Source of the DNA: Saccostrea cucullata
Taxonomy: Eukaryota
Assembly (NCBI RefSeq): GCF_032062105.1
Contig: NW_026929843.1
Span: 1 to 38,439 of the forward strand
Length of the DNA stretch: 38,439 nucleotides
Direction of reading: 5' to 3'
Each line of letters begins with the position of its first letter. Position 1 is the stretch's first letter. A program made the position numbers and the translations under genes. The notes under the pieces were generated by a model that was not told where the DNA came from, ran no database searches, and saw only the letters and a program-made list of their open reading frames with translations. Positions 1-29,466 of this stretch are shown in pieces.

Positions 1-72
1 ACGTCATGTACGCCTTTGTTACGGAGTGTCAGGTGGAGGACAGTATCTTTTTTTTCCTGACCACGGCGTCAC

Positions 73-5179: not shown

Positions 5180-5215
5180 AAAATGCGCTTAGAAAATAAA
5201 CACTTCCATTACGTG

Positions 5216-8099: not shown

Positions 8100-8250
8100 T
8101 TAACATTGCATTTTCCGACAATTTTTGTAATTTTTTCGGAATCCGACAATTGTTTTTTTCATTTCCGACATTATCTACTAGTATTTCTTTTTCTTTTTTC
8201 ACACTTTCGGATTTTTTAGGATACCTTTCCGGCAATTTAAGTTTAACATA
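8100..8250 (+). repeat. Copy A of a 'ttccgacaat ... ttcgga-tttttt-ag-tacct-tccggcaat' repeat family
   Basis: Direct similarity to 10975-11075. Both carry repeated tccgacaat motifs and end in ttcggattttttaggatacctttccggcaatttaagtttaac, compared with ttccggaattttttataggtacctctccggcaatgtaatgtttacc. Confidence 0.5.
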
Positions 8251-8599
8251 TATATATAAAAAAGATGGAAATTGAATTTTAACAGGGTATTGTATATATG
8301 CATTGTATAATATTATTTATTTCAAATCACGTTTTTTCTAATCATTACATACACTCTGTAATCAATATTAAGACGGGTTAATAAGTATGGAAACAGTGAA
8401 GTGAAACTTCACATTCACAATTCATGTACCTTTATCTGTTCCAGTGCAAAATCAAGTACGTTTCTTTGACAGCTAAGAGCAAAGCCTTTTATTTGAATAA
8501 ATTATCTAAAATATTTTACCTTAATTAAGGATTTTTATAACGGATGTATGACTTCTTTTTTCATTGACGAAAAAAGTACTGAAATGAATTTGACAAATG

Positions 8600-8700
8600 T
8601 GAAAACTTTTAAAATGTAAAAACTTAAAAATGTCGGAAATGAAAAGGACAGAAAATTCCGGAAATGAAATACTACTACTAAATATTACTTCGGGACAAGG
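8600..8700 (-). repeat. Inverted partial copy of the same repeat family
   Basis: tgtcggaaatgaaaa and aattccggaaatgaaat are reverse complements of ttttcatttccgaca and of the tccggaat motif at 8150-8200. Confidence 0.4.
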
Positions 8701-9204
8701 TAAATGTGCATTAATTGGCGAAATCAAACCAAATTAAGTCGATTAATTGCTGGATTTATAAATGCCTTTATTTTTTCATAATTAATATACATGTGGCTCA
8801 TATAAAATCTCTGTGCACTACATTTATGATATATTATATATACTAATGTCTCTCAGTTTCAATGAAAATCCGAACATTTTATACCCCCTCCTTTTTTTTA
8901 ATTATTACATGTGTATTTTTTTCAACTGTAAAAAAAGTTTAAAGTTTTAAAGTATACCGATATTGTACATATAAAGAGCTTGAGTTTAAAGACACAATTT
9001 CAGAAAATAATGAATGCACTTATGGGCCCTGGTAAAATGTGAAAAAATAAGCAAAGTTAGCAAAATTTTCATCTCAAATCATTAATTCATATCCAAACCA
9101 ACGATTCAACAATTTTTTACCATGGAATTCACAAAAAATAAAGAACAAAACCATACAATGTGGTAGGGTCAGCCGACTTTTGTGATTTTCTATTAAATTA
9201 CTAA

Positions 9205-10345
9205 ATCGAGATGCAGTACAGAGGGCGGACCTTTTCTGATAACTGCGTTTTAAGGTCCGCCCTGTCTATTTTTCTAGTTTTCAACCTCCGAAAATAAACC
9301 CTGTCCAAAACTTCTCTTTATGACATGAATATATATGAAATACAAAGGGCGGACCTTTTCTGATAACTGTGTTTTAAGGTCCGCCCTGTCTCTTTCTCTA
9401 GTTTCTAAGCTATACGTAAATAAACCCTGTCCAGAAATTACCCTATAAAAATGAAGAATCTGAAATACAAAGGGCGGACCTTTTCTGATAACTGCGTTTT
9501 AAGGTCCGCCCTGTCTCTTTCTCTAGTTTTTAAGCTATACGAAAATAATCCCTGTCCAGAAATTACCCTATAAAACATGAAGGTATCTGAAATACAGAGG
9601 GCGGACCTTTTCTGATAACTGCGTTTTAAGGTCCGCCCTGTCCCTTTCTCTAAATTTTAAGCTACGAAAATAAACCATCTCCAAAAATTATTATTTTTTT
9701 GATAACATGAGGATATCTGAAATACAAAGGGCGGACCTTTTCTGATAACTGCGTTTTAAGGTCCACCCTGTCTCTTTCTTTAATTTCTAAGCTATACGAA
9801 GATAAATCCTGTCCAAAAATTTCCCTATAAAAAATGAAGATATCAGAAATACAAAGGGCGGACCTTTTCTGATAACTGCGTTTTAAGGTCCGCCTTGTCT
9901 CTTTCTCTAGTTTCTAAGCCATACGAAAATAAACTCTGTCCAGAAATCACCCTATAAAAAAATGAAGATATCTGAAATACGAAGGGAGGACCTTTTCTGA
10001 TAACTGCGTTTTAAGGTCCGCCCTGTCTCCTTCTCTAGTTTTTAAGCTATACGAAAATAAACCCTGTCCAGAAATGTCCCTATAAAACATGAAGGTATCT
10101 GAAATACAAAGGTCGGGCCTTTTCTGATAACTGCGTTTTAAGGTCCGCCCTGTCTATTTTTCTAGTTTTCAACCTCCGAAAATAAACCCTGTCCAAAACT
10201 TCTCTTTATGACATGAATATATCTGAAATACAGAGGGCGGACCTTTTCTGATAACTGCGTTTTAAGGTCCGCCGCCTTGTCTCTTTCTCTAGTTTATAAG
10301 CTACGAAAATAAACCCTGTCCAGAAATTACCCTATAAAACAGGCG
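9205..10345. repeat. Tandem satellite, about 123-bp unit x about 9, each unit with an internal 10-bp inverted repeat
   Basis: Unit ...acaaagggcggaccttttctgataactgcgttttaaggtccgccctgtctctttctctagttt.taagctatacgaaaataaaccctgtccagaaattaccctataaaa.atgaag.tatctgaaat. The unit phase starts about 9219 and is periodic at about 9343, 9466, 9590, 9716, 9843, 9968, 10093 and 10218. gggcggacc...ggtccgccc can form a stem with a 20-nt loop in every unit. Units 1 and 8 share a distinct variant (ttttctagttttcaacctccg...cttctctttatgacatgaatat), hinting at a 7-unit higher-order period. Confidence 0.9.
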
Positions 10346-10974
10346 TGAGATAAATAATTATAAACAACTTTTCGCAGAAACCTTCAAGTCGGTTATAATA
10401 TAACATAATTTTCGGTTATACTAGTAATAGAAAATAATTCATAGTTACTAACACTTAACAGTTCTTGACAAAGGACCAAGCTTCTTCACCAATCGTGGCT
10501 TCTTAACATCTTCACATTCGGAACTCTCTGGATTTCTTTATATAATATGCTGCATTGCCACGAAATTCTATTCTAAACCAGCTCATACAATGCGTCAATC
10601 TGCATCTTTGCCATATTATATAGAGTCTCCCCCCTCTGATGTTTCGGAGGTCCGTGTTTGCTCTGCTCTTATTTTGTATATTTGTTTAATGGACGTTGAG
10701 ATTGAATACTGTTTTTTATTTCCATATCCTTCCTCTCCAGTAAAGGTCATTAATGTTCCGTTGCGCCAAAGCTCCAATAGGTCCACCCCCCCCCCCTCGT
10801 TTATTTACCTATATGTCTATAAAACTCACTTCACAAAACAATTATAACTTGATCACACTCCAGTCTCGGAAAAATTAAATATTCAGCAAAATAAATCAGT
10901 TGAACACGGACTTTCCTTTCTGTGTTTAAAAATTGCTACGGCGCTAGCTCACTTATCTTTTTTATAAGATAAAC

Positions 10975-11075
10975 TTGTTTTATTTCCGACAATTACTCTT
11001 TTTTCCCGACATTTGATTTATCTTTTTTTATTTCCGGAATTTTTTATAGGTACCTCTCCGGCAATGTAATGTTTA
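10975..11075 (+). repeat. Copy B of the tccgacaat/tccggcaat repeat family, flanking the 123-bp satellite on its right
   Basis: See 8100-8250. Together with the inverted copy at 8600-8700 it brackets the tandem array at 9205-10345. Confidence 0.5.
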
Positions 11076-11877
11076 CCGGGTACATGGACGTAGAAAAGGA
11101 ATTTTGAAAAAAAAATTATTAAACACCACAGTTTTAATATAAAAATCTGTATAATACATCTGTACATGAAGCACCAAGTCTATTTAACAGACTACAAATA
11201 ATGAGCATGCAATTTTTTCCTCACATTTAATGTTCGATAAATCAAATGCCAAATACTGCCTTGAACTTATGTCTATAATTTTATTCTTTAAAATTTTCAA
11301 TTACCGAAATTTAAATCAAAATTTGCGTTTTATATATAGATATCAGAGATTTAAAACAATGACCGATTCTTATCGATTCGGAATTTAAATATCAGACACA
11401 GTTTTAATTCAATTAGCTTGAATTTAACTAATAGGGGATATTTAAGTTCAATATCGGTGAAAATTTTAATTTAAATATAAATATCAACTCTCATGTAAAT
11501 ATACGCTTAATCTAGTATTTATAATTTTTAACTCAGATACGCCATATTTAGCTTTAAATTTTCAAATAAAGACTATATGATTATAATTAATATAAATGTC
11601 GCAGTTTTGAAGTGTACGCATGGATATTTTGTTCCTTAGCATGATTTATTAATTCAAGAAATTTAAATCTATTGATATGTAAAGCTAACACATGACCATA
11701 AGGTTCACCGACCATTCAATGACAGCGCCATCTGCCGCGGGCTCTACCTGTGGGTACCTGTCAGGTAAACAAATACGTCACACCCCCATTGTTTTATTAG
11801 CTATACACACCGACAGATTTCACACCTTTAATCGTATTCTAATTCACACAAAGCTAATTCTAGGGAAAACAAACACT

Positions 11878-12446
11878 TATTTATTTCAATAGTGGTCACT
11901 ATTTATGTTTGTTATTGAAATGCACTTTCAACCACTATTGATTATTTCAATAGTGGTCGTATTTCAATAGTGGTTATTACCTATGTTTGAGTAGTGCCCG
12001 TATTTCAATTGTGTTTGAAACCTATGGTTACCATATTGTAATGCACTCTCACCCACTATTGAAATAATTATTTCAATAGTGGTCGTATTTCAATAGTGGT
12101 CACTATTTATGGTTGTTATTGAAATGCACTCTCAACCACTATTGATATCATTATTTCAATAGTGGTCGTATTACGATTAATATTGGTTATTACCTATGTT
12201 TGTTATTGAAATGCACTCTCAACCACTATTGATATAATTATTTCAATAGTGGTCGTATTTCAATAGTGGTAACTAACTATGTTTGCTATTGAAATGCACT
12301 CTCAACCACTATTGACATAATTATTTCAATCGTGGTCGTATTTCAATAGTGGTTACTAACGATGTTTCTTATTGAAATGCACTCCTAACCACTATTTATA
12401 TAATTGTTTCAATAGTGGTCGTCATTTCAATAGTGGTTGCAACATT
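11878..12446. repeat. Tandem satellite, about 88-bp unit x about 6.5
   Basis: Unit is about atttcaatagtggtcgt atttcaatagtggttactaac tatgtttg.tattgaaatgcactctcaaccactattga.ataatt. Each unit holds two direct atttcaatagtggt copies and one inverted accactattgaaat. Confidence 0.85.
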
Positions 12447-12899
12447 GCAATCTTGTTGTGTATTAATGAGAAATATTAAAACTTTTATCCAGAAAAATAA
12501 TTTTATTCAGAATAGAAAAGTTAGAAACAAACTCCTTCTGGATTTTCTGGATTATAGTATTCAATGACATATTTTTCATTTTTACACAATGAAATTGCTA
12601 CTTTTCCAAAGGATTAAGAATAGAATTCATTTGTGAAAGAGCAAGGATGTGTTTATCAAACCCGCCAAAAAATTTGAAATTTTAATATCTTTTATATGAA
12701 ATAAGATTTTTAATTAATGTTTGTGTGAAATGCTATTAAAATATATAAGTCGTCATATTATAGAGAAAACAATAACTTCAAATCTGTGTCAATTACCTTT
12801 AAAATATGTACAAAATAATAAAATGCAAATTACTTTTTAATGAATATTCACAAACATTTTCATTTATTATAATAATTTAGTATTATTACATTAAACCCA

Positions 12900-13230
12900 T
12901 GAATACATCTTAAATATTAACGAGATCTTCTATGACTTCGAAATACACATTTATAATACCTGTCAACTTATCAACAATACATTAACAAATATACTTTTAT
13001 GACTTCGAACTTTGCAATAATAATAATGTCCAATAATAATAATGTCAACGTGTCGACCTGTCAGCCAGATATAAAACAAATATATTTATCAACAAATGCA
13101 CTTCAATGACTTCGAACTTCACAGTAATATTGATGTCAACAGTTCTACTTGTCAACCTGTCAACCAAACAGACATTGTAGCATGTTTTTGAACAAATGTT
13201 CTTCTATGACTTCAAAATACACATTCATAT
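12900..13230. repeat. Degenerate tandem repeat (about 80-100-bp units) with core cttctatgacttcgaa.t.cac
   Basis: The core recurs four times, at about 12928, 12995, 13098 and 13198, with diverged spacers. Confidence 0.4.
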
Positions 13231-13339
13231 AATAAGGTCAGATTTGTAGTATTCAAATACGATAATATAAAACAAGAACGTAGACAGTGCATGTATATAA
13301 TGCACAAATATTTAAAATTCCAAAGAATCTGGGGGATTA

Positions 13340-14354
13340 GGCGAGTCATATGCCCACAAGGATTTTCTCGCTTTGTAAGCATATCGAACATTTCATAGTC
13401 GTACGATTAACCTTAACATTTAAACTTTGTACAGCAATGTCCAAATGACAATATCTATATTTCTTTAAATCTTGAGGTTATCGTGACATTATTTTAACAT
13501 ATGTGATCTTTTCATACTGCGTGTTAATTGTTATATCAAATATGTTTTCAGGCGTTAGGAGATGATTATACATTTCTTGTTAACTGTTTTTGTATACAGT
13601 ACAGTCATATCGTTCCGGTATACCAATGGTTGTTTTCATTTCAATTGTGTAATACCGGTGTAGTCTTGAACTAAATGCATTCAAATTGTTATATACATGT
13701 ATCTCGAAAACTTGTTTATTATGGGAAATATATTAATGGACTATATATAAATTCATTATCTTATTTATTCATTTTGTTTTATTGAAAAAAATATATGTAT
13801 CTATAAATTTCAACCTAAACTTAAAAAAGCTGTGGTCCGAATACTCGCGACAAGTGATGCGTGCTTCAGCACCGCCGCTATGACCAGTGAGCTACGAAGT
13901 CTCAGATACGTTGCTCTTTAAATTACAAACAGTTCTATATGTATAGCAACCCCCTAATTATACTTGGAGTTTTTGAGAATATGTTCCGAAATTTAAATAG
14001 GTAAACTAACTTTTTCATATAGAGTGGGTCTTCTTACCTTTTTTTTTAAATGAAGAGAGATACATCCTCCCATACCCTTTCAATATTTGTATACAAAAAT
14101 TGGTACAAAGACCCACTCTATATGAAAATACAAATTTAACATTCAATTTCTAATATTTTTACGGTTACTAAAGCGTGTTACCATTTTGGTGGGTTAATTA
14201 AAATCAATTTCTAAGTCATTTGATTCAGGTTTTATCATAACTGTATATACAGTCGAATATGGTTATAAATAAATCCCAAATTTAACAAAAGCGAAATTTA
14301 TCAGAATTTCTAAATTAATATTTTTTCTGCCCTTGCCTAGGCATATGACTCGCC
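13340..14354. mobile_element. Non-autonomous PIF/Harbinger-type (Tourist-like) element with about 24-bp TIRs and a TTA target-site duplication
   Basis: Left end gggggaTTA|ggcgagtcatatgcccacaagg. Right end ccttgcctaggcatatgactcgcc|TTAaaccc. The TIR is GGCGAGTCATATGCC.A..AAGG with 2 mismatches, flanked by TTA at 13337-39 and 14355-57. No ORF lies inside. It contains a nested 21-bp perfect hairpin. It ends 145 bp upstream of the Roc exon. Confidence 0.5.
14014..14129. repeat. Perfect 21-bp inverted repeat (ttttcatatagagtgggtctt / aagacccactctatatgaaaa) with about 75-nt spacer
   Basis: An exact reverse-complement pair read directly from the sequence. It lies inside the Harbinger-type element. 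Confidence 0.6.
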
Positions 14355-14499
14355 TTAAACCCAAAATTCATTTGAAACGTTATAAATTAAAGTTGAATAT
14401 TTGAAGTTTTATTAAGATAGTACTTTATATTTCGTTAATAAGAGTTATTTTTCATCATTGATGAGTAAATTAATTGTGTTCATTATTTGCATCATTTAG

Positions 14500-14751
14500 T
14501 AAATATACCCAAAGAAGTATTAAGTTGGGATATCCATGCTAGAGAAAGGTTTGTGAAGAACTCCAAGCTAGGAAGCGTACAAATGTTTCGCGCCAGAGGC
14601 ATGATAGTTGGATGTGCAGGTGCCGGAAAAACAACTCTTTTACGAAAACTTCACGGAAGAGGTATAACAGATGAAGATGAACCAACTGAGACAACTATCG
14701 GCCTTGAGGTTCATGAAGATTTGTTTGCTATTAAGGAAAACAAGTTAACAG
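14500..14751 (+). CDS. ROCO-family Roc GTPase, coding exon with P-loop (G1) and G2 Thr
   Basis: The ORF-track frame translates to ...FRARGMIVGCAGAGKTTLLRKLHGRGITDEDEPTETTIGLEVHEDLFAIKENKLT. GxxxxGKTTLL followed by T-I/V-G is the Roc/Ras G1-G2 pattern, as in LRRK2 MIVGNTGSGKTTLL...TVGIDV. The acceptor is tttgcatcatttag|TA at 14498-99; an alternative AG lies at 14513-14. An in-frame ATG at 14583 (MFRARGMIVG...) is a plausible translation start. The donor is AACAG|GTGATA at 14752, leaving a 1-nt overhang. Confidence 0.6.
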
Positions 14752-15102
14752 GTGATATTTTCCTTTATCATATACTTAGTGATAAATACACCAATTCTGC
14801 ACGGTGTGATATGGGTGACGTCACAATACCCCATATCACGGACCGGTCCGAAAATCCATATCACGTATCAGACCGGCGGGCCGAAAATCATTATTAAACC
14901 GAAAGTCACGTTTGTATCAATTTTAAAAGTTAATTTACTTGATTTTATTTAAATATTCATATAAAATAATTCTTCAATGACTTTTGTAGTCTTAATTTTT
15001 TTGTCATTTACCTAAAATTGGTTCTATTACATTTTAAATAAAAATGCCATAAACAAGCATGAAACCTCGCATATTAAGTATTTTAAATGTATGATAAATA
15101 GA

Positions 15103-15246
15103 ATACTACATACTAAAATCCATATCATATGTCACATCAGCCCTCGGGCCCCTTATCAACCCTCTGGCCTTCGGCCCTCGGGCTGATATGGTGCCACTCG
15201 GGCTGATATGACATATGATATGGATTTAAGTATGTAATATTCTCTA
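15103..15246. repeat. Hairpin/MITE-like inverted repeat (about 36-bp arms, GC-rich loop) in ROCO intron 1
   Basis: The arms are tacatact.aaatccatatcatatgtca.atcagcc and its reverse complement. They flank ctcgggccccttatcaaccctctggccttcggccctcgggctgatatggtgccactcgggctgatatg. Confidence 0.5.
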
Positions 15247-16771
15247 TTTTTCAAACAGTGTATATGCTATGTTTTAGAGTATATACTTATTTAATCAAAC
15301 TGAAGTTCGAGTTTCTAATCCTTTTGATTAATTCCGCTTATGTTTCTCATTTGTTGAAAAGTTCCAATATCAGGATAGGTATGGTGAATTTCTTAGAAAA
15401 TTGTTCAGCATGTTTAAAACTAATGTATACACAGTAAAAAGATGACTACATTAAATATAGCAAAAGCATTGCATTTAAACACCATGAAGGTTATCAAGGT
15501 ATTGGATTGCTAATGTACATGTAATTATAATGTTAAAGATATATATGCCGTATTAGTGTTTTATTGCTAAAGAAATAAATATATGTGGTGTCTCATCAAG
15601 TTACATAAGTTATGTAATTTCTGCAATTAAGACAATTCCACTCCATCACTTTTAAAAGTTATGAAATATTATTTTGTAAAAATTATTTTCTCTCCGAATC
15701 GGATATTAAACCGCCTCTTATTGAAATATTCATGAACACGTGGTCTCGCATGCTCACAGCAAACAATGGTCCAATCTCGTGAATGAGCCGAAAAGCATGA
15801 TGGTCTACTACGTTTTTACTACAAACACGTGGGTTAGGGAATTGTACGATGCGATTTAAAATGACGGCTGGAAAGCCAATTTACATTTTTTTAAAAACCT
15901 GTTTTAGAAAAAAAGGAAGAATAGTTACTAATTGAGAATTCCCATGCTCACATTAACAAACAAATGCAGTTTTTCTTGTTAGCATACTGTATGTTTCGAG
16001 GTTGTACACATTGTAAACATTGTCAATACGTGAACACACCTCAGAGTTAGTAGCTTTTTGTACCGAGGAATATATAGTTACGTGCAATTGTCTTTTCATT
16101 GTCAGTAGAGCACGGGGAAATTGTAAACAAACGGACCTGTACAATAGAGTGGGGAAACTCTTATTTTTATCATTGTTCATTTGTATGCAAATGTTAGGAT
16201 GGGATTTGTAGATGATAATGTACATAATGCATTAAGCGTGTAAATACTTGGGAAATGCTCCACGTCTTTCTGAGAGCGATTTAAAAAACTAGCCTGTTCG
16301 AAAAACACATGTAGTATTTATGTACCGAGTAGTAACCCATAAATGCATTAAATACAACTCATTGAGCTGATTGGTCGATTTATCAGTCTTGTTGGTTCCT
16401 CGCTGAACAGACGTCACAAAAAATAGTCTCCTCGACCTGATGATTCTCGTGATACTTTTCCCGCGCACATGCGCAGATCCAACATAAACGTCAGGCCTTT
16501 ATAAATATGTATGAGAATATCGTGTTCTTTTCCCAACCAGTACTTTGTTAATAACGAATAATATTTCGTCGAATTTGCGAGAATGCTTCATTTTTGATAG
16601 CTTATCATACTTCAGAAATTTCTGTTTGGTTTCAGCTGTGCAAAAATACTGTTTAACACGGCATACATATCTTTAAGTTTTATGAAATATTTAGCAAAGA
16701 TTTTTGTCAGGAATTCTCTTTTAGTTTTATATTACCCGGTAATTAATAAGTTTATCTTCGTACTCGAACAG

Positions 16772-17005
16772 ATTTTGCGAATGCTGACAACAGTAGAAAT
16801 CCATACCTTGACAACAACGTAATAAGCATGACAGACTTTGCAGGACAAGTGGCGTACTACGCATGTCACCAGGTTTACCTGTCAAGAAGAGCATTTTATA
16901 TCGTAGTTATTGACATGTCCAAAAAGCTTGATGAAGAATGTCGATTGTATGACACAGATCGTCATGATCCAACAGGATCCTTATTTCATTCATGGACTTA
17001 CGGAG
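16772..17005 (+). CDS. ROCO Roc GTPase exon with switch II / G3 (DFAGQ)
   Basis: Translation ...MTDFAGQVAYYACHQVYLSRRAFYIVVIDMSKKLDEECRLYDTDRHDPTGSLFHSWTYG matches the Roc G3 region (LRRK2 [31 protein letters not shown]). The phase suits a 1-nt overhang from exon 1. The acceptor cgtactcgaacag|AT at 16770-71 has the better pyrimidine tract. The alternative in-frame acceptor catgacag|AC at 16833-34 (exon start 16835) removes 21 aa. The donor GGAG|GTGAAT is at 17006. Confidence 0.5.
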
Positions 17006-17427
17006 GTGAATAACATATTGATGCTAAAATTATCTGCCCCCAGTCTGAGTAAGATCAATTATGAATTTTATTAAATTTAATCAGATTTTCTAAGACAACT
17101 TTTCTTTAAATTTGTGAAATCATGAGTTTCTTCTCCTAAGTAATCTGTTTTATGTGTCTGTATTTTGTATTTATGATATATTAAGTATTTTGCAGAGGGA
17201 CTATGAAAAAGCTTTGCTAATGAGGTTTGTTTTAAATATTGAGAAAAAACAAACATCCACACACTCCCAAGCAATGCCAATGAATAATGGGGCATGAACC
17301 AATAACATTGTAAATGACATACAACATGTATATTTTACCTATACATGTATATACATAGCAGTAATTTAATGTAAAGGGTGATGAATTTACCAACCAAAGT
17401 TAAACACCGAAGTAAAAATATAAACAA

Positions 17428-20400
17428 TGTACACAGGAAAAATGTATACATGTGTTGAATATATGTTAAACATGTGTTTATCATATATTTTTTACACATG
17501 TAAAACACATAAAAGGAGCACATATGTATAGGGTGTTTATTTTTACACATGTTAAACATATGTTTCACATGTGTTTAACATGTGTAAAAATAAACAAATT
17601 ATATATTTATACATATGAATCATGTGTTAAACATGTGTTTTATATATGTTATACTTTATATGTGAATTATACGTGTATAATATTACTGTTGTACTTATTA
17701 TCATTTTTATACTTTTTTCATGTCTGTCCACATATGTGAATCACATGAAAAGGGCAGCATATGTAAATCATATGAAATAGTTACATGTGTTCTCTTTCAA
17801 TATTTATCAGAAGGAAAAACACATTCTTGTACACATTTAAAAATCAGATATTTCTGCTTTAGATGAAAATCCATTACATTCCAATGATCTATCTTCATGG
17901 GTTAAATATTTGAAAATTAATATCTTAAAATGCTTACACAACTTTTTTAACATAATTAGTCCATGTCCTTTTTTATAATTTATATGATTTGACATGAAAC
18001 TGTCCAAAGCAAAATTAAAATATCACATATAACATTTGTCATGTATTCTCTATTGTAAATTTATGAAAAATCAAGTTATTTGATATTACAGCATACAAAT
18101 AAGAATGGGAATTAAATCTTTACAGGTCAAATGCAGACAAGATTCTGTACATCCTCCCAATTTCATAATTATTTCATATATTTTCTTGTTCTTTTTCCTT
18201 CTGTATCTTTCAGTTTTCTTCAGTTGTCCTCCCTCTGATCTTCCATGAGCTTGACCATTTTGAACTCTCTTTGAACTGTACCCAAAATGCAAATCCACCA
18301 TTTCTCCCTTTCCTAAGCAATTTCTTTGTGGCACAGAATGGTCTCTACAAAAATTTCAAAAGTAAAAATAAAACAATTCTTAAATTACAAAATCAATTCT
18401 ACAAGTAATATTAAAGTTCAGCAAACAAATGTATGACCAGTTCACCAACAGAGATATGATAAGAGATAAAACTAATGTTATATATGCTATGCTAGGTGTT
18501 TTGTGGAATCCTATGATGTAATTAGCAAGACAATTACACTGTTGGAAGATATGCTTCATAATAAAGTCATAAAAAGCATTTTTTTTTATTTTTACAATTA
18601 AATTTGGAATGTACAAACAGTATTACTAATTCATATTGCAAAAAAGTAATAAGATTCTGACACAAATATTTTATTTTTGGACAAAAAATACTACAGAGAA
18701 GTAGACAGGCAGAAAAACAGACAGTATGATTCCAGGATATCCCAAATGTTGTTGGGAAGAATATAACAAAGTTTATCTAACAGTGTGTAGTTACCTTAAT
18801 TAAGCTTTTAAGCAAGTCTTGGATCTTGGGATTTATTCTTATGAGACGCTGACTGTATATTGAACCTGTAAAACAAATATTCACGCAGTAGATATCTTCT
18901 AAGCATAACTAAAACTTAATTAAACTACAACTACAAAAAAGAGAGAGTACTTGTTTGTAGGTTCTTAATAGTCTTAATTAATATCTTACATCTTACCAGA
19001 AACTATGTTCTCTAGTGTTGGAAAAAAATAATAAATGTCAGGTAATGAATACCGGTACATAATAGTTGTAAATATCCAATGGATTAGCTAGCTGATGTAC
19101 TTTCAACAATCAACACATATGCACATGTACTTGTACCTTGTACCTTGAAAGTTGGATGTCTTTCTTCTTTCTTTATTATCACTTTAAGCCTTACAGCTTA
19201 TCAGTATATTTACAAAATAATCAGTTTCATTACAGTACAGAAGCGGATATTTTACTGTTATTATTAATTTTTAACTGAAATTAAAAAATTCAATAACCCC
19301 CCCCCCCTGAAGTCATTTACAGTACATGTACCAATTTCATAGCTTTTAAAGCCAGCAAATTCTATTCATACTTTCCATATTTTAAAAGTGCACTGGATTA
19401 AAACTGTTTTATAATACAGAATAAAATTATTGTAGTATTGAGTTGAATTCATTCAGAAACAAATTTATCCAAAATTACTTACCTGTATACAAATTATAAA
19501 AAATAGTCATGCCTTTAGCATGTTTAGCCTAACATGTAACCGCTTACATTCACGGGCACTGGAAGTTAATATATCATGTATAGATCTATAGTTAGATAGA
19601 ATGTTCTATCGTTAAAATGATATTGTCCTACGGACCCGGTTTAACGTGAGGGCCTGTACCGAGACACAGTTAGATTATTCTAACTAATCTATAGTATGTG
19701 TATGTATAAAAAAGAAGGGTCTTTTTTAAACATACACATACTATATGTTTACATTAACTTCCAGTGCCCATGCTTACATTCAGTCAGAAACATTTTTCAC
19801 CAAAATTACTTACAGATCACTATCGTTAGGTTTACGAAATGCATGACAAGTCACAATGATAATTAAGAGTATTACAGAAAGTTCATACGCACCTGTAACT
19901 ATATGAAATGATATTTAAACAATATGAATTAAAAGTCTTTTAAAAATTGTTTGGAGATCACTTACCTTTCCAATACACCCAGCACGTCTGTTGCAGCAGT
20001 GACGTCAAAAATGACGTACATTTTCATCCGATAAAAGACAAAACCGGCCCTGAGACAAATACGGAATTAATAGAATTTTACTCAAGAAGTAAGCCAAGCC
20101 CAAAAGATTTAAAATGAAAAGAAAATGAATTCATTCCTTATCAATTTTGTCTGATAAATGCATTATTAGAGAAAAAAAATGTGAAAGTTTTTTTTAGAAG
20201 GGAAAGGGGGGGGGGGGTAAACAAAGTTAAACTTTACATGAGTAAAATTTTACTAACATTTACAAATTCTTTTGAATTAATGTACACACACATATGAGAT
20301 AAAGCTTATCATGTGTATAACATGTGTATATGAATACACATATATTTTATTTAAATTAAACATGTATAATTCATCTGTATTTTCGCACACATATATTACA

Positions 20401-20625
20401 TATATATAATACGTGTTTTACATGTGTGGTGAAAAACATATGTTTAACATATATATTATCTTACAGGTGTATAACATGTGTATATTATATGTGTTTTACA
20501 TATAAATGAAACACATATTTTACATGTGTTTATTTACACACATGTATTACATGTATAAAACATGTGTTGAACACATGTGAAACCAAACATATGTTTAACA
20601 CATGTGGACATTTTTCCTGTGTACA
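17428..20625. mobile_element. About 3.2-kb element bounded by long degenerate inverted repeats (ACATGTGT-rich arms), in ROCO intron 2
   Basis: The left arm opens tgtacacaggaaaaatgtatacatgtgttgaatatatgttaaacatgtgtttatc at 17428. The reverse complement of 20560-20625 is tgtacacaggaaaaatgtccacatgtgttaaacatatgtttggtttcacatgtgttcaacacatg. The arms extend about 330 bp, to about 17760 and from about 20280. The interior has no convincing ORF and contains a 35-bp-arm foldback at 19541-19790. Confidence 0.45.
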
Positions 20626-20806
20626 TAGTAATCTATAAAAAGAAACATCAAAATATCTTGATAAGTACAGAAAAGAAAATATTTAATATATTGCAAAATA
20701 TCTATACCTTTTTCCCAACTGACCACATTTTTGGATTGGGCATCAAGTCAAAAGGATAAAGAAGGATGATTATATTCAAACGAGAATTTTTTCAGTAATG
20801 TAGTAT

Positions 20807-20968
20807 AGGAATCACTGTCTAGTTAGTATAGTATGCCAGGGCATCAGCAATAGTGAGAAACATGGGATAATTTGCATAACCTGCGAAGCCCGTTTTACAT
20901 AAATTATCTAATGTTTCCCATTATCGTTGATGTCCCTGGCATACTTTACTAACTAGACAGTGATTCCT
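20807..20968. mobile_element. 162-bp MITE-like hairpin element with TA(T) flanks
   Basis: aggaatcactgtctagttagtatagtatgccagggcatcagcaatagtgagaaacatgggataa ... ttatctaatgtttcccattatcgttgatgtccctggcatactttactaactagacagtgattcct. These about 65-bp imperfect inverted arms are flanked by tat on both sides, at 20804-06 and 20969-71. Confidence 0.55.
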
Positions 20969-21570
20969 TATATTTCCATTTCATTGTAAAATAAAATTGT
21001 AGATTTAGATTTTAAAAATGTAGACATATATATTTAAATTACACAAGAACTCCCATGCCAATTTTAACAGTCCTCGACAACTGACGTCAAAAACAAAGGC
21101 AGCCGTACGAGATTCACATGCATATCAGGCCTCCTTAGCGTTGAACACAGATGCGCACAAAATTTGAATGCATATCAGGCCTCTTTAGCTCCTGACCTAT
21201 CGACCTGCCTAATTTACATCCCGGTAGAATTATCAAGATATCAACTCCGCTAACTTTCAAAGAGTTATCACAGAGAATAAAATTAAAATGGAAATATATT
21301 ATTATCACTGTATGATTTATTTCTAACATTAAATTTTATTCTTGTCCATTACAAAATAACATATTCTTGTGATTATGCTGTATTTGTGTTCAAGTAAATG
21401 GTAACAAGCAAATTATTATTATTATTATGATTAATCACAGTCCCTGGTGATTTTTTCATATCAACCTACTAAGGGAAAATAACTTTATAAATATTTTTTT
21501 AAAAAATAAAAATATTCATATTAAATTCATTTCGAGTTGATATAAATATTGCCATGTATATTATCTGTAG

Positions 21571-21722
21571 AATACTTCCATTTTTGGCTGCAAACTGTAA
21601 ATACATATTGCAATGATGGAACAACACAGGAGAATCCTAAAGACACAACAGCAATCAAAAACTCCACGACGAATTTCAATATTCCCCCGATAATTCTTAT
21701 TGCCTCCCATAAAGATCAGATG
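21571..21722 (+). CDS. ROCO Roc GTPase exon with G4 motif (HKDQ)
   Basis: The acceptor ttatctgtag|AA at 21569-70 completes the split codon as G+AA = E. Translation EYFHFWLQTVNTYCNDGTTQENPKDTTAIKNSTTNFNIPPIILIASHKDQM aligns with LRRK2 PWLFNIKARASSSPVILVGTHLD. The donor ATG|GTAAGA at 21723 is consensus and phase 0. Confidence 0.6.
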
Positions 21723-21883
21723 GTAAGAACAAATTCCACCCTGTGTTCGTTTTCAAACTGTTCAAGTATGCAGATTTATTTGCTTTGAACCAACTTGATG
21801 TTGGAAACCTCATTTGCAGCTGATAAATGTATATTACAACAAAAATAAGAAATTCAAACCTGATGATAGAAAGTTTGTTACCT

Positions 21884-21911
21884 TTTTTTAGGTCACCTGA
21901 GTAAACTCAGG
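21884..21911. repeat. Perfect palindrome aggtcacctgagtaaactcaggtgacct (11-bp arms, 6-nt spacer)
   Basis: Read directly from the sequence. The motif ctcaggtgacctat recurs at 26613-26626. Confidence 0.6.
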
Positions 21912-22012
21912 TGACCTATTGCTATCTGTTTTCGTCCGTCGTCGTGCATTGTCCGTCGTCCGTCGTGCGTTAACATTTGAACATTTTCAGCTTCTTCTCT
22001 GCAACCACTGAA

Positions 22013-22039
<27 letters not shown>

Positions 22040-22043
<4 letters not shown>

Positions 22044-22670
22044 TCTGGGTAAAGGGGAACAAAAAATTGTGAATTTCTTGGTCCCTGTTGCCCTGGGGCC
22101 TGAGGGATGGGGCCAAAACTACTAAAATTAATGCAATCTTTAAAAATCTTCTTCTTTACTCCTGTACATCAAGCAGTCAAACTGTTTGCATGATTGTAAT
22201 CAGCAATGAGTTCTCTACCAAAATTGTGAAATTCATGGCCCCAGGGTCATGGGTTCTAGTGCTAGGGCTTGGCTAAATAAGTAGGTAGTAAAAATGCAAT
22301 ATTTCTTTGAAAATCTTCTTCTCTGTTGCTAGGTATTAAATAAACCAACTAAATACATAGTTATGATGAGCAAGAGTGCCTCTACCAAAATTGTGAAATT
22401 CATGGCCCTAGGGTCAGGGGTTCTGATGTTAGGGCGGGGCTCTATTGATTATATAGTGAAAATACATGACTTCTTTGAAAATCTTCTCTGCTCCTGGGTC
22501 ATAAATAAACTAACTAAGTACATAGTTATGATGGGCAAGAGTGCCTCTACCAAAATTGTGAATTTTATGGCCCCAGGGTCAGGGGTTCTTGTTTTAGGGT
22601 GGGGCTCTAATATATAATGAAATGCATGTATTCTTTGAACATCTTATCCTTTGCTCCTGGTTAATAAACT
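22040..22670. repeat. Tandem satellite, about 166-bp unit x about 3.7
   Basis: Full units lie at about 22205-22370 and 22371-22536. A truncated unit follows at 22537-22670 and a diverged copy precedes at 22040-22204. The core is gagtgcctctaccaaaattgtgaaattcatggccc.agggtcaggggttct...cttctttgaaaatcttct.tgctcctgg...aaataaac.aactaa.tacatagttatgatg.gcaa. The ORF-track ORFs at 22088-22617 are artefacts of this repeat. Confidence 0.8.
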
Positions 22671-23151
22671 AATGATCTAATTACATATTTAAGGGCAGGA
22701 TTTATTTTATTTTCAGTTTTACAAATCCTCCGCTCAAGGTTTTGAATTTTCAGAATAAAAAAAATTAAAAAAATTTCTCTCCGATGTCAAATTTGAGTCG
22801 GGATCTAGATTTAAAATTTACGAACTCGCACTTCCGGTTTTAAGATAAAACGGCGGGTAAATAAAGCTAGATCTAAGAAGATAGTTTGGGTTAGTGTAAA
22901 AATCATCTATATGAGTGCCATTCAAAACGTTTCACCCGTTCAAAGGACAAATAAAATGCTGATGACTTTGTTGCACAATGACATGCTGGTGAGATAATTA
23001 TAGATTCGTTTCAAAAGTATCTGTCTGTTAATTATTTTCGTCCCCCAGGTTTTCAACTGCCTGTGGTAGCTATTGCATATTGCCAGCGACATTGTTTAGG
23101 TCTCTGTTATAGCTCACAGTCTAAGCATCATTCTTCAGAAAAGGGTTGCTT

Positions 23152-25803
23152 ATAGTGGAGTGACAAGACCATCAAAAATTTGACTTTAATGTACCACCCT
23201 ACCCTACGGCTGATTTGTACTTTTTTGGTCAGATATATTATCAAGCAATAATTTTTGCCCGGTCGTAGAAAATTCTATGGTCAAAATTTAAAATAAATGG
23301 AGATCAAAGATCAATGAATGAAATGTGACCATAATATTGTACATATGAAGAAAAGATGAAGGACTTCGTGAAAATAATGTATATTTGTATAGGAATTTTT
23401 ATTTATTCGGTGAATATATTGATTTCATGGAAAAGGAACGAAAAGTTGAATAAGAAAGCCCGTTTGTCTGTCTGTAAAATGAAAGGTTTGTCTTAGAGTA
23501 TTTTATTTAAACTTAAAAGATTTAATGCTAATGTACGTTATTTTTTACGTACAATCACTTAATTTTTAGTACACAAAGCAAAGAAAAATAAAAAGAAGAA
23601 CAACAACTCCCATCACCCCTACCCCCCCCCCCCCCACCCACCTAAGAAAACGGAATATGACCATTTCGCATTTTTTAAAAAAAAATGTTATGTTTTTATT
23701 ACGCCTTTTACATCTGATTCATTATTTTATTATAAAGAAATTGTTCGACCCTGTTTTAAAAGCTTTTTAGTAAAACAATCTTCTTGAGGTCATCCTTGCT
23801 CTCACACTGAAGTACAGTATTCCGGTCTCATCCAAAGGACGGACAACATATTATTTAAAGTCTTATTATTATTCATTTCTCTGTCTAAATAGGCCAAAAA
23901 ATTTTTTTTTCAATGAATGTTATCTATGATTTGAAAATTTACGTTTAATTTGGCGAACTTTTGAATAAGCGTTTACTCATAAATTAAGCAGGTTACATTG
24001 TAGAGATTTTGGGGTTTTGAAAGATTTTAAACACGTATTGGTGTTAAAATTGCAATTCTTGGAAAAGGGGTGAAGAGTTTAAATAATGACGTAATACTGT
24101 AATTTCTATTCATTGGTTTTCATGTACACGTACATGTATATCTTTATCGTTATTTTTTCAAGAATATATTTTATTTGAAAACTAAAAAAGTAGAAATTTT
24201 GTAAAAGAGCTACACTGTAAAAGTAAAGATAGCCGATCTTTAAAAAGATACTTCAGGTGGGTAGATAATAATTAGAGCAGTGCAAAATGGCAATATTCAC
24301 ATTAAATGCATGTCATGCGTGGCTTTTTTCATCTGCTGACAGAAAACTTTATATTTTTGAATTTTGAAAAGGGCTGATTGCCTAAATACTCAGTAATCTT
24401 TTTGATTTCATCAGAAATCCTAAAAAAAATGTTAGAAATCCCTCGTTGTTTCTGTGGTTGGTTAAAGATAGCGTATATAGTACTGTTTCTTCTGTCTCTA
24501 TTGCAATTTTTAAAATTAATATTAGACAATTAATTCTTGAAGCAAAACTGACAACTCTTTCTCAAAAGAAAAAAAATATCAAAAAAGCTTTCTTATGACA
24601 GAATAAACCATGAGTTGTCCAGCAATATCTTTAGTGGATTGCTTTTAAGGTTCCGTTTGATTCATATCTTCCTTACTGGTACGTCGTTTCAAAAGAAAAC
24701 TTTTAAGTACTGTAAGCAGTGAGCTGACAAAATATGATACCCCCGCTCTTAAAGGATCATATAGTAAAAGAGTTCAATTTTTGGCAGTATATATGTACAT
24801 GTAAATGAGGAAATGCGTAAACAAAATATGTATCCCTTAGTTTGAATAATGACAAAAGTCCATGTTTTTGCTGTAGAAAACACTATATATATTTCCGAAG
24901 GAAACATGAAAAAGTTTCTGTAAAGTGATGGACAGTCTTTAAGATGAAATACTTTAATCAGTTTTCTCTTTCTGTTTCATACTTGCGTTAATCTGTATTG
25001 CTTATAAAGCAGAAAGGCAATATCCAATCATGCAAGATACCTCGTTCAAACAAGAATGTGAAGGAAAAGTGATATCTTTGTCCTTTACGTATTTTTTTAA
25101 TTGAAAAAAAGGAAATGACTTTCAAATGCTAATTGATTTACATTCAAACTGAATATTAGCGTTATATTATTAATTAATAGAAGCCAATTTAACATATTTA
25201 ACAATATTTTGATCGATTAAGTCCTTGTCATAGACATGATGGGATTCTATAATCCGTTTCGATCAAGTAGAATACCAGACTTAGTGCGACGTTGTCTTTA
25301 AAAATTGCGGTTTATTTGATCAGAAATCATTGTCTTATGTATCTTTCTAACACTTAAGTAAACATTCGTTATTAATATTGCATGAAATAATTGTACTGAA
25401 TATATTTTGTTGAAATTAACGCAGTTTCTATAACAAAACATAAGATTTTTTTTTTTAAAAGAAGGGGGGGGGATAATATTCCTGATTAATTTTGCATTGT
25501 CAATTTAGATACCTGTAGCTTTCCTTTCACACACAAATTAGTATTTCTTTAAATATCAATGATTAATCTTTGAAAAAGAACATTATCAGCGAGTAAAATA
25601 AACGACTTATATACCCCCCCCCCCTCTTTTCACTTTAATCGCAAGTTTAAAAAAAGTTTTGACTTGGGAAAACTCTACGACCGGGCGAAAATGTATGAGG
25701 ATGAATGTCTCTTTTATAAAATATAACTTTCAGCTGTAGGGTATGCCGGTCCATTAAACTCGAAAACTAAGCATCTTTTTCTAGGATTGTCACTCCACTA
25801 TTA
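23152..25803. mobile_element. About 2.65-kb segment bounded by about 150-180-bp inverted repeats; putative non-autonomous TIR element
   Basis: The reverse complement of 23141-23290 is gaccatagaattttctacgaccgggcaaaaat...cagccgtagggtagggtggtacattaaagtc...ttgtcactccactataagcaa. It matches 25665-25803 (ctctacgaccgggcgaaaatg...cagctgtagggtatgccggtccattaaactc...ttgtcactccactattatgta). The outer termini are atagtggagtgacaa / ttgtcactccactat. I cannot resolve a clean TSD. Confidence 0.4.
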
Positions 25804-26439
25804 TGTATCAGATGTAATGAATAAAACTATGGGAGAAGTTTAGTCCATTTGAGGAAGAAATAAACAATAACCTGAAGAAATAAAAAACAAATTCAACTAT
25901 TAAAAGGCAAGGATATACAAATATATACAGGCATGTAGTATCATTTGTATAAGCCAGAAAATTATTTTACACTTAACTTAATTGAAAAAATGTTCACCCT
26001 ACTCCCCAATACTCCCTATCTGTTTTATGATAGAAATTATGATTTTAGGCAACATGTTAATTTTAGAACAATGTCAGTATACATTTACCTAACACATATT
26101 TAAAAAATGAAGATATATTGAAAGGCTTTTAAAGAATTGATTTTTTAAAATATATTTTGACCAACATCACAAAATTTATATAACTGACCCAAACTGGCAG
26201 ATGATGAAATAAGCAATTAAATGTTCTACTTTCCTATTTGTAAGCATTATGTGTCCAGTGGTAAGGAGCCTATTTGTATAGCATAAAAAAAGAACGTACA
26301 AATGCTAATAATTGATTTATCAAAAAAATTTTATTTCCTTCTCCTTCGGAACTTTTTTTATTCTCATTTCATAACTAAACTTAAACATTAAAAAATGCTG
26401 GCCTTATAATGAAGAAAGGGGCCTCTTTCAAAATAGATA

Positions 26440-26626
26440 ATTTCAGGGCCGCTGGGTCAGGGGTACCCGGGGGGTACTTTGACTAAAATACATTAATGCT
26501 TTGAAATCTGCCCTTTGATAAGCAATGGTGCCTTCTTCAAAATTTGTGAATTTCATGGCTTTGGATTAAAACACGAACCAAATACAATCGCTGGAAAGTT
26601 GTTACATGATACTCAGGTGACCTATA
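26440..26626. repeat. Diverged copy of the 166-bp satellite unit ending in the ctcaggtgacctat motif
   Basis: ttcagggccgctgggtcaggggtac...ctttgaaatctgccctttgataagcaatggtgccttcttcaaaatttgtgaatttcatggc parallels the unit at 22371-22536. It is followed by atactcaggtgacctataagg, matching 21897-21910. Confidence 0.45.
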
Positions 26627-28152
26627 AGGCCCGTGGGCCTCTTGTTTTATAAAGGATTGTTTTAGGTTACCATTTCCGTCTTTTTACTGTACTAGTTACA
26701 TGTCTAAAAAATAAAAATAAAATAAAAACTCTAAAGTATATGTTAACATTTATACCAATTTCGCTAGCTTATATTAAGTCGACGTACATGTATGAACGGA
26801 AGTTTCTATAATTGTCAATTGATAGTACTACGATACACCTAAATATCGAGTTGAAGACCACACCTATCTGAATTTACATACAGGTTGCTTAATTTTAAAC
26901 CACTTATTTTCTAAAAAATAGAATGGAAACACATATAAAATACCAATATTGAAACTTTTTTGTCATTCCGACCCGAAAGTAGCTATTTTTATGATTTATT
27001 GACCCTTTAACCCCTAGCTTTTCATGGTATATACGCATTTCTACGCATCTGACGTGAAAAATGGGTATAGTGTGAAAAAAACATTCATAACTTCTTGAAT
27101 ACTGCAAATATCAGAATACTTTTTGCACTGCTGGAAAGAGAATACAATAACAATAGAAAGTTTCTTGCTAGCTTGAGTTAAACTTTGCCGCGCACTATTT
27201 GAGCAATTCTGCCATAGTCAATGCGGTGGTAAAACGTTATATGTAAAAAAAAACTTAACTTAGGTGATCTCCTTCCAACCCCAACCCGTCCTGCCAAAAT
27301 ATTAAAAAAATTTTTTTGTTTTTTTTAAATGTACGACATGCGCATAATTTACAACAGAACAATAAAATGATCAAATATTTTAAAAATATTTTTAACTTAA
27401 AATGAAAAAAACTAAAATGGCACTCATTCTTCAATAAATGAAATTCCAGCAGGATGATGGCGTATTTCGTTGCTATGGTAACTACATTGATATTTTATAA
27501 TCATTTTCAGACACTACACCATGCCTGCTTTCAGAATATATATGTATACATTGGTATACACAAAAAATTAAAGAAATACTCGAAAAAATGCTTTGAAATT
27601 TGAATACAATTTGTTTAGAAATACTTAAAATCTTTGCCAATTGGAAGGGATTAAGTGTATCTGGCACTTGCTATTAAAGTACTCTATGCAAATGATTCAT
27701 TTGCTGTGTTTCCTTATGAAGAAGGATATGGAGATAACGAACAGTTATACAAATACAGCATGCAGACATTTCTTCATCGTCTCTTTAATCTTTTGCTGCT
27801 GTATTCATAAATGAATCAAATCATATACTGATTTTAATTGTCTTTGTAAGCCTTAATAAAACTTCAACTTGTTTTCACTCAATCATTTGATGAGTATTAC
27901 TACTGTCAAGAGTATAATTTGTTATTACTTGTACAGAGTGTATTCCCGGCGATAGAGTGTCATAATAGGTGATCAACGTTTAAAAATGAACAAAGGGAAA
28001 TAATAGGGAAAACTAATTTTTAATATCCGATAATTATAGAAGCTACGTAATTCATGTTTAATTATATTAAAATATAATCTCGAAAGTTAACATTATTAAA
28101 TTACCTTCGTTGGTTTTTTAATACATTTATTAATTTCCTTATTATTAAGCAG

Positions 28153-29466
28153 GTCAGAACTTGTAACCCATCAGAAACATTTTACAGCCAATTGGAAGCG
28201 TGTTTATCTAAAGAACAAACCTTAAAACGGCTTATATCACCATACCGATATTTTGAAGTAGAATGTCCACCTGGAGCATTGACTCAAAAACAACAAATGA
28301 CAATTGACTGTGTTAAGAAATGTATTGTAGAAACTGTAAAAAATCTACAACATTGGGGGGAAGAAGTTCCTTTGAAATGGTTTGAACTTGAAAAAATTCT
28401 GAATAATGAAAAAGCAAATGGGAAAAAAGTCATATGGAGGCCACAATTCAGAGAAACAGCAAAATACCTTTCAATAGATGAAGATGACCTCAATGATGTT
28501 CTTCGTTTCTTACATGAAATAGGAAAAATCTTATACTTTTCTGTGGATAAACTCAAGGATACAATTATCATAGATGTTCAGTGGTTTGTTGATGCATTCA
28601 AGTACATTATAACTGACGAAAAGCATTTTGCTCGGAAAGACAACATAAACGCACTAGTTAATACTGGGAAAATTACTGGACAGTACATTGAAGAGATATG
28701 GAAAAATATACAAGGCAGTCGTGGTGTACCTTGTGCTGATACAAAAGTTAGTGTCGAGACTGATAAAGGTCATGATTCCTTGTGGCAATCTTACTTAAAT
28801 CACAAAAATGAAATTTTACAATACATGGACAAACTTGGCCTAATTACGAGAATTGGAAGACATGTAAGCACTTACAATAAGGAGGAAATGTATTATATTC
28901 CGAGCATGAACCGAACCGACCTTTCTGATGACAGTAAAAATGAAATCAAAGGAAAACAAAAGTCAGCAATGATGCTGTACTTTTTCAAGTCTTATTTACC
29001 CCATTTTTTCTTCTTTCGATTGGTTGTAAAGTGTTTAAAAAAATGGAAAGTTTGTGATAAAAATTCCTTTTTTAAAAATGTTGCACTTTACAAGGCAGAA
29101 GATGCCGGCCATTATTTTGCTATCGCCGTCAGCAAAACATCCATCCAGTTGCAGGTTTTTACACGTGATGAAACCGTGAAACTTGATGAAAAATGCGTCA
29201 AGAAAATCAGACAAACAGTGGAAGCCTTTATAAAGGAAATAACAGAAACTTTTCACAGGGGAATTATCTATGATGTGGGTTTTTCATGTAGCGACATAAA
29301 AATTACAGATGAAGATGAAGAATTCTTTTTTAAAGAGACAGATATTAAAGGTGGAATTGAACATTCGAAGGAAATATCTTGTCCAAAACATTTTCTTGGT
29401 AATAACAAACACAAAATCGATACAAGTAGAATACATATGTGTTTGTTGGAGAGAAAGTCCACTTAA
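28153..29466 (+). CDS. ROCO terminal exon: end of Roc plus COR-A/COR-B domains, stop TAA
   Basis: The acceptor ttccttattattaagcag|GTC at 28151-52 is phase 0 and joins ...ASHKDQM|VRTCNPSETF. The 438-aa exon has VPLKWFELEKILNNEK...DDLNDVLRFLHEIGKILYFSVDKLKDTIIIDVQWFVDAFKYIIT, compared with LRRK2 COR-A IPDCYVELEKIILSERKN...LPHAVHFLNESGVLLHFQDP...LYFVEPKWLCKIMAQILT. It has YYIPSMNRTDL, compared with YLLVPSSLSD, and MMLYFFKSYLPHFFFFRLVVKCL, compared with [22 protein letters not shown]. A possible internal donor TTG|GTAATA at 29399 could splice to undetected downstream exons. Confidence 0.7.
   Translation, partial: VRTCNPSETFYSQLEACLSKEQTLKRLISPYRYFEVECPPGALTQKQQMTIDCVKKCIVETVKNLQHWGEEVPLKWFELEKILNNEKANGKKVIWRPQFRETAKYLSIDEDDLNDVLRFLHEIGKILYFSVDKLKDTIIIDVQWFVDAFKYIITDEKHFARKDNINALVNTGKITGQYIEEIWKNIQGSRGVPCADTKVSVETDKGHDSLWQSYLNHKNEILQYMDKLGLITRIGRHVSTYNKEEMYYIPSMNRTDLSDDSKNEIKGKQKSAMMLYFFKSYLPHFFFFRLVVKCLKKWKVCDKNSFFKNVALYKAEDAGHYFAIAVSKTSIQLQVFTRDETVKLDEKCVKKIRQTVEAFIKEITETFHRGIIYDVGFSCSDIKITDEDEEFFFKETDIKGGIEHSKEISCPKHFLGNNKHKIDTSRIHMCLLERKST

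Follow-up and report, generated by a model that had tools for sequence, protein, structure and literature searches.

An oyster ROCO-type GTPase locus with an intact Roc-COR core and a decayed N-terminal exon

Is a Roc-COR GTPase that appears in a genome without any flanking module a complete gene, or is it what remains visible of a larger one? In ROCO proteins, the Roc domain binds and hydrolyses GTP, COR-B dimerises, and the flanking modules sense or execute. The question is raised by a 38,439-nucleotide (nt) stretch of the oyster Saccostrea cucullata (contig NW_026929843.1, positions 1 to 38,439, here called the window), in which an earlier note, made from the letters alone, had described a compact Roc-COR gene and left it undecided whether this was a bare Roc-COR paralogue or a gene with further exons. 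The data presented below are best explained if the window contains the five final exons of a gene that belongs to a large, oyster-restricted expansion of ROCO-type GTPases. The most upstream of these exons is decayed, and on balance we consider it probable that what the locus now encodes is no more than a stand-alone Roc-COR GTPase with a length of about 620-650 amino acids (aa).

When spliced, the four Roc-COR exons (Table 1) form one reading frame that runs without a stop for 649 codons and is closed by TAA. All their splice sites are AG acceptors and GT donors, their phases are compatible and the stop lies where homologues have it, and thus the four-exon structure proposed earlier stands. 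The window is AT-rich (31% GC), and the exons have a GC content of 37%. Exon 1 opens with two bases of a split codon (x/TA, the slash marking the junction), which means that its upstream partner must end in phase 1. Searches by tblastn with eight oyster homologues recovered every exon boundary and, of the two acceptors between which the earlier note had not chosen, favoured 16772 over 16835. The acceptor at 16835 keeps the frame too, but homologues align through 16772-16834 and its use would remove the strand NVISMT before DFAGQ, which occupies residues 100-105 in the structural model. The internal donor at 29399 (after residue 627), suggested earlier as a route to further exons, has to be abandoned: its use would drop the nearly invariant H632 together with the terminal strand and helix, and homologues continue past it to the same stop. 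Of the G motifs, which can be read directly, the P-loop GCAGAGKTT, TIG and DFAGQ are as previously described, while the motif given as HKDQ is better read as SHKD, by its likeness to the LRRK2 G4 motif, which we take to be THLD.

Profile matches, sequence matches to structures and a fold search together indicate that Roc, COR-A and COR-B are all present, as expected for the ROCO-type gene that the earlier note had recognised. Its proposed check by hidden Markov model searches with Pfam, on the spliced product and on six-frame translations, returned Roc and COR as significant and nothing else above threshold. Roc (PF08477) reaches 35.5 bits, above the cut-off of 27 (E 1.3e-8), and COR-A (PF16095), immediately C-terminal of it at residues 285-448, scores 55.9 bits against 35.3 (E 5.7e-15). 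In a sequence search of PDB chains, the top matches were LRRK2 Roc and COR-A (E 1.5e-9), with LRRK2 COR-A aligned to residues 266-366. The AlphaFold model of the product, built with 77 homologues in the alignment, has a predicted local distance difference test score (pLDDT) of 84 and a predicted template modelling score of 0.86, the low-confidence loops being at 185-197 and 405-417. In Foldseek, full-length alignments were obtained with LRRK1 (8e05, E 4e-20), the best fold match, and with many LRRK2 structures; the model also matched 4wnr (the RocCOR of Methanosarcina barkeri Roco2) and the RocCOR of Chlorobium tepidum (3dpu), the latter with a template modelling score of 0.74 on the 485-residue target, E 9.5e-19 and ~650 columns aligned. 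Residues 449-649 have no Pfam match. The model is mostly at pLDDT 85-95 there and aligns with the complete RocCOR of 3dpu, LRRK1 and LRRK2, and by this modelled fold COR-B completes the tandem. GTP binding and hydrolysis, as well as nucleotide-dependent dimerisation, are predicted from the motifs.

A protein search yielded 187 homologues at E <= 1e-5, and the named matches among the 120 listed are all from S. cucullata, S. echinata or Ostrea edulis. Their automatic names are mostly 'probable serine/threonine-protein kinase pats1' or 'uncharacterized protein'. The best full-length match, P0001 of S. echinata (819 aa), is 74% identical over 100% of the product; partial S. cucullata models reach 82-86%, of which P0003, P0006 and P0011 are 83-86% identical over partial lengths, and no homologue identical to the window product is among the matches listed. 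Comparison with close relatives at the DNA level covered the P0001 locus (L001, S. echinata) alone, and not P0003, P0006 or P0011. In this locus, as in the window, the gene is laid out in five exons with identical splice phases, and the sizes of the four Roc-COR exons agree closely (252/252, 234/237, 152/152 and 1314/1314 nt, window/L001). P0001 ends in ..MCLLKREST and the window product in ..MCLLERKST, which means that the stop is conserved; it is in the same position in P0005, P0012, P0013 and the Ostrea protein P0020 as well. The window copy therefore belongs to the oyster family by its high-identity Roc-COR, exon structure and stop. The family layout consists of an N-terminal module made of an internally duplicated unit, followed by Roc, COR-A and COR-B, without a kinase. 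An intact N-terminal module in frame with Roc is what the window copy lacks, stops being present in both relevant frames.

The same family bears on the possibility that the ROCO gene is longer, with kinase, LRR (leucine-rich repeat), ankyrin, TIR or Death exons that went undetected in the window or lie just 3' of it. Distant paralogues do carry a further domain after COR-B, HEPN_DZIP3 in P0059, P0078, P0055, P0099 and P0060 and Death in P0071 and P0076, which implies that the core of the family is constant while the effector domains at the C-terminus can be exchanged, and short LRR exons may escape a scan of the kind used here. That scan compared all six-frame stop-free segments of at least 45 aa (248 segments) with Pfam and found no kinase, LRR, ankyrin, TIR, Death or HEPN domain in the 38 kb; its only signals were Roc, COR and a sub-threshold DDE_Tnp_4. 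When the Death and HEPN domains and the N-terminal 1-300 regions of paralogues were compared with the window by tblastn, nothing came under E 0.1. The previous statement that no kinase, LRR or death-domain exon is detected in the 38 kb is thus borne out. Pkinase matched neither the product nor the six-frame segments nor any of fourteen scanned homologues, and neither a kinase nor an LRR is found in the Pfam scans of those fourteen or in the Pfam assignments precomputed for the 120 listed homologues. The name 'pats1 kinase' is therefore an annotation artefact of automatic transfer. The kinase C-terminal to COR that marks the LRRK/Pats1-type ROCO kinases is replaced here by a stop directly after COR-B, and LRRs N-terminal to Roc, as in LRRK, MFHAS1 and bacterial Roco proteins, gave no Pfam match in the scanned segments of the window or in the homologues. 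Together with the stop position common to five relatives, these results make additional undetected modules very improbable. Rfam matched no RNA family anywhere in the window.

What the family does have upstream of Roc is a module of up to ~410 aa, which 92 of the 120 listed homologues match, ~40 of them over nearly its full length and the rest partly. It has no Pfam match, and it is an internal tandem duplication, the two halves matching each other at E 3e-10. When 1.84 billion representative sequences were scanned exhaustively with the module by HMMER, only 92 proteins were returned; among those checked, 9 of 9 with a species name are from Saccostrea and a tenth is nameless. A word-indexed profile search with the module found Saccostrea and Ostrea only. 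The module of the relatives is predicted to be mainly helical with moderate confidence (AlphaFold pLDDT 68), Foldseek found nothing like the model in the PDB, and of a winged-helix-like fold the model gives only a hint. A DZIP3-type HEPN domain was considered and rejected for the module, because PF18738 sits C-terminally, after COR-B, in the paralogues. In L001, the first coding exon is ATGG/gtaatt and the exon of the module that we call exon A is a 501-nt phase 1-1 cassette. Positions 1-244 of the window match the second half of the module (..VMYAFVTECLVEDSDLEFFLTTASRDVISEYCRSW..LYVP..MYDLFIDKLQLDIITHCTVSD..ISKRL). The exon proposed earlier at 73-244 is thus the tail of the last exon of the module: it does belong to the gene and derives from real coding sequence, but it starts at or before position 1 and is broken across two frames. 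The gene consequently extends beyond the 5' end of the window, where, by analogy with L001, the first coding exon and a further ~230 nt of the broken exon would be located.

Relative to L001, the window exon has suffered six deletions in 244 nt (3, 2, 3, 3, 1 and 2 nt), three of which break the frame, at about 74, 208 and 242, and three of which are in-frame. The same deletions hold relative to all relatives; there are no insertions, and most of the deletions are outside homopolymers. The conserved peptide can be followed in frame 3 (3-75), then in frame 1 (76-207) and again in frame 3 (210-242), and the exon end returns to the phase that suits Roc exon 1. However, with TGA at 58-60 in frame 1 and TGA at 108-110 in frame 3, no frame passes the first shift. 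The equivalent segment is 85 aa long in 12 of the 13 relatives examined. After frame correction, the exon is changed at 10 of 54 highly conserved columns, against 0-6 in family members, and the changes include non-conservative ones at invariant positions (SEGERC to GG-RKI, L to Q).

It is conceivable that these frameshifts are sequencing or assembly errors and that the locus is an ordinary full-length member of the family like P0001, the first ~80 codons of which lie upstream of the window. The GTGAGT donor is intact and the exon ends in the correct phase 1, the frame-corrected exon has a ratio of non-synonymous to synonymous substitution rates (dN/dS) of 0.33, one deletion adjoins a T run, and P0006 is frameshifted at a T run in another assembly. 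All this would suit such an explanation. Nevertheless, errors would have had to produce six deletions and no insertion in 244 nt and no frame shift in 1,952 nt of the same gene, mostly away from homopolymers, and indel errors leave the substitutions at invariant positions unexplained. We regard an assembly artefact as improbable.

The Roc-COR exons look constrained. Over 1,952 nt, the comparison with P0001 contains no frameshift and 5 gap columns, and dN/dS relative to the P0001 locus is 0.30 at a synonymous divergence of 0.46. Among 118 highly conserved columns, 4 are changed, all conservatively, which is inside the family range (family median 2). The difference between 10/54 and 4/118 changed columns has p = 0.0016 in Fisher's test, and the chance of all 3 frameshifts falling within 244 of 2,196 coding nt is 0.0014, so the contrast between exon 1-244 and Roc-COR is unlikely to be due to chance. 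In the relatives, the N-terminal exon is normally the more conserved of the two, with a ratio of N-terminal exon to Roc identity of 1.40 at the median and 0.97 at the minimum; in the window copy this ratio is 0.83-0.87, as calculated with the three relatives that have the most similar Roc regions.

This contrast is also what has to be set against the idea that the whole locus is a young pseudogene in which Roc-COR has not yet been disabled, or in which intact paralogues have repaired it through gene conversion. An uncompensated frameshift, stops in both relevant frames, a start exon that similarity did not find in the window, an intron swollen to 14 kb by repeats and the abundance of partial or split gene models in the family are all expected of a dying gene. 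If, however, the whole locus decayed neutrally and equally at 6 indels per 244 nt, ~48 indels would be predicted in the 1,952-nt Roc-COR, in which no frameshift and only 5 gap columns are seen. The clustering of all three frameshifts in exon 1-244 and the few conserved columns changed in Roc-COR argue in the same direction, and the known paralogues among the matches listed are at most 86% identical, so that no recent donor for conversion is visible. A pseudogene is, in our opinion, the chief alternative, though an unlikely one; it is less unlikely than assembly errors.

A decayed N-terminal exon next to an intact and constrained Roc-COR frame of 649 codons makes a stand-alone Roc-COR product most likely, and we would argue that Roc-COR stayed in use without the N-terminal exon, since the latter has apparently been unconstrained for longer. 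The minimal Roc-COR of the earlier note is plausible for this reason, and not because the gene is simply compact, for the family does possess an N-terminal module. Such a product could arise in three ways. First, the broken exon may be skipped: a first coding exon ATGG, taken from L001, joined to 14500 would read M-V-N-I-P.. in frame. Second, a short alternative 5' exon may be used, as in the model of the paralogue P0016, which opens MVKM/NIPEEIL. Third, translation could be initiated at the ATG at 14583. Stand-alone Roc-COR models do exist among the RefSeq models of the family, namely P0016 in S. echinata and P0005, P0018, P0034 and others in S. cucullata, and no N-terminal exon is found within 13.9 kb upstream of P0016. 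The P0016 locus, L002 (S. echinata JAVQLB010000049.1, 2292443-2330590), is apparently nested, since P0016 lies inside a gene for a 2,503-aa product (Pfam CEP209_CC5) that is on the same strand and extends over all of L002.

Several points weigh against a stand-alone product. Neither the first exon nor the acceptor belonging to the broken exon falls within the window, an alternative 5' exon was not found in the window by similarity to the 5' regions of L001 and L002, and we infer both expression and the true 5' end. Once its frame is corrected, the broken exon has a dN/dS (0.33 over 75 codons) that is not above that of Roc-COR, so relaxation is visible only in indels and in changes at conserved sites. 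Even in a dead gene, Roc-COR could be kept free of damage if intact paralogues converted it. Gene models of the family are often fragments that contain the N-terminal module alone or COR alone or are labelled 'partial', and the C-terminus of P0006 is a frameshifted form of ..LPHFFFFRLVV.. at a T run; together these suggest that dead or mis-assembled copies are common in the S. cucullata assembly.

Table 1. Features of the ROCO-type gene in the window
Feature	Position	Strand	Remarks
Last exon of the family N-terminal module, 3' part	1..244	+	corresponds to exon A of the S. echinata P0001 locus; truncated at position 1 of the window; decayed
Donor of the N-terminal exon	245..250	+	GTGAGT, intact; exon end in phase 1 (T/TA = Leu), fits the acceptor at 14499
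Intron between N-terminal exon and Roc exon 1	245..14499	+	14.25 kb vs 3.9 kb in the S. echinata relative; repeat-expanded
Roc exon 1	14500..14751	+	helices N-terminal of the G domain, P-loop GCAGAGKTT (14610-14636), switch I TIG; phase 1 in, phase 1 out
First in-frame ATG of the Roc-COR frame (MFRARGMIVGCAGAGKTT)	14583..14585	+	candidate start only; RefSeq models P0005 and P0018 begin at the same residue
Roc exon 2	16772..17005	+	strand NVISMT, switch II DFAGQ (16834-16848)
Roc exon 3	21571..21722	+	helix, variable loop (low model confidence), G4-type motif SHKD (21705-21716)
Last exon	28153..29466	+	Roc end, COR-A, COR-B, stop TAA 29464-29466; stop position as in relatives
COR-A in the last exon	about 28369-28860	+	Pfam, residues 285-448
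COR-B in the last exon	about 28861-29463	+	residues 449-649

If the locus does produce a stand-alone Roc-COR protein, this would be, by established ROCO biology, a dimeric switch controlled by nucleotide. Having neither sensor nor effector modules, such a copy could act by pairing with full-length paralogues via COR-B and so modulate them. A role of the whole family in innate immune or cell-death signalling is suggested by its variable Death and HEPN ends and by its lineage-specific expansion. This pattern fits the lineage-specific expansions of immune adaptors reported in bivalves by Kaur et al. (PMC8195603) and the proposals of ROCO proteins as receptors, made for the TIR-ROCO proteins of Aplysia (PMC9334734) and, as an idea of ROCO immune receptors, for brown algae (PMC11378527). 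No paper on oyster ROCO proteins was found in the literature searched. One may speculate further that the Saccostrea/Ostrea lineage has built an innate-immune repertoire resembling that of NOD-like receptors on a Roc-COR switch and not on NACHT or NB-ARC, with the lineage-restricted duplicated N-terminal module as the constant or sensor part, swappable Death or HEPN effectors at the C-terminus, and copies such as the present one, devoid of the N-terminal module but with a constrained Roc-COR, kept as stand-alone regulators that pair with full-length paralogues via COR-B. Taken as a whole, this scenario is a long shot.

The introns and the 3' flank contain a variety of repeats. The 14-kb intron harbours a satellite-like tandem array at 9217-10341, with a 127-bp unit in 8.9 copies (85% matches) and higher-order periods of 255 and 382 bp, which coincides with a local rise in GC and a negative GC skew, and an 83-bp tandem repeat in 4.8 copies at 12034-12438. 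A 165-bp intronic tandem repeat at 22213-22645 (2.6 copies) contains repeated open frames (..STKIVKFMAPGSGVLVLG..) that have no Pfam match. The sub-threshold DDE_Tnp_4 signal is intronic too, at 6476-6703 (+), and is a weak match to the C-terminal end of this PIF/Harbinger-type transposase family (E 0.004; 17.2 bits, the cut-off being 24.8), probably left behind by a transposon. At 35981-36977 (-), four overlapping open segments in shifting frames encode a coiled-coil-like stretch followed by ..MNLIFENLGGE.. and ..GHRFGRHSRGRNRPVVASF.., and have the appearance of a frameshifted coding relic. None of these segments, nor the peptide obtained by joining them, has a Pfam match; presumably they resemble the ORF1 (first open reading frame) proteins of retrotransposons. 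Finally, 9005-9198, 10628-10743, 21885-22058 and 37764-38011 are 70-85% identical to non-homologous places in L001, some of them occurring several times and in both orientations; these interspersed repeats are dispersed families common to both genomes.

Taken by itself, the locus is one more, fairly ordinary paralogue, and similar copies are already present in the public oyster annotation under the misleading name of 'pats1 kinase'. The family is more useful than the locus: it represents a large and young expansion of kinase-less ROCO proteins, with an unannotated N-terminal module, variable Death or HEPN ends and frequent truncated copies. The decayed N-terminal exon next to the constrained Roc-COR offers a concrete case in which the loss of domains from modular switch proteins can be tested.

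Among known proteins, the closest to the window product are its relatives within the family. P0001, P0003, P0006 and P0011 have the same Pfam content (Roc and COR-A, no kinase). In P0001, P0006 and P0011 the N-terminal exon is intact and of constant length, with 85 aa in the part visible here, whereas the window copy has its six deletions and no continuous frame; the P0003 model is without this exon. The intron that follows the exon is 3.9 kb long in the P0001 locus and 14.25 kb in the window. The stand-alone Roc-COR models of the family lack the N-terminal module and start either just before the P-loop or with an alternative first exon of 4-12 aa that is joined to the same acceptor. Their predicted products resemble what the window locus could still make, and they are 42-67% identical to the window product. 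Whereas the window retains a decayed N-terminal exon, no trace of one is left in the P0016 locus. Much farther away, the Roco of C. tepidum (LRR-Roc-COR; 3dpu, 6hlu) and Roco2 of M. barkeri (4wnr) contain kinase-less Roc-COR tandems like the oyster product, although the prokaryotic proteins are only 13-18% identical to it; C. tepidum Roco has N-terminal LRRs that the oyster product lacks, and the oyster Roc has long inserts, modelled as the low-confidence loops at 185-197 and 405-417. DAPK1 and MFHAS1 are, besides LRRK1 and LRRK2, other human ROCO proteins. With human LRRK1 and LRRK2 the oyster product has the Roc/COR-A/COR-B core in common, without their kinase, WD40, ankyrin, armadillo and LRR parts. 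The DFAGx form of switch II is likewise common to the oyster product and LRRK2, with Gln at position 109 in the former (DFAGQ) and Arg in the latter (DFAGR).

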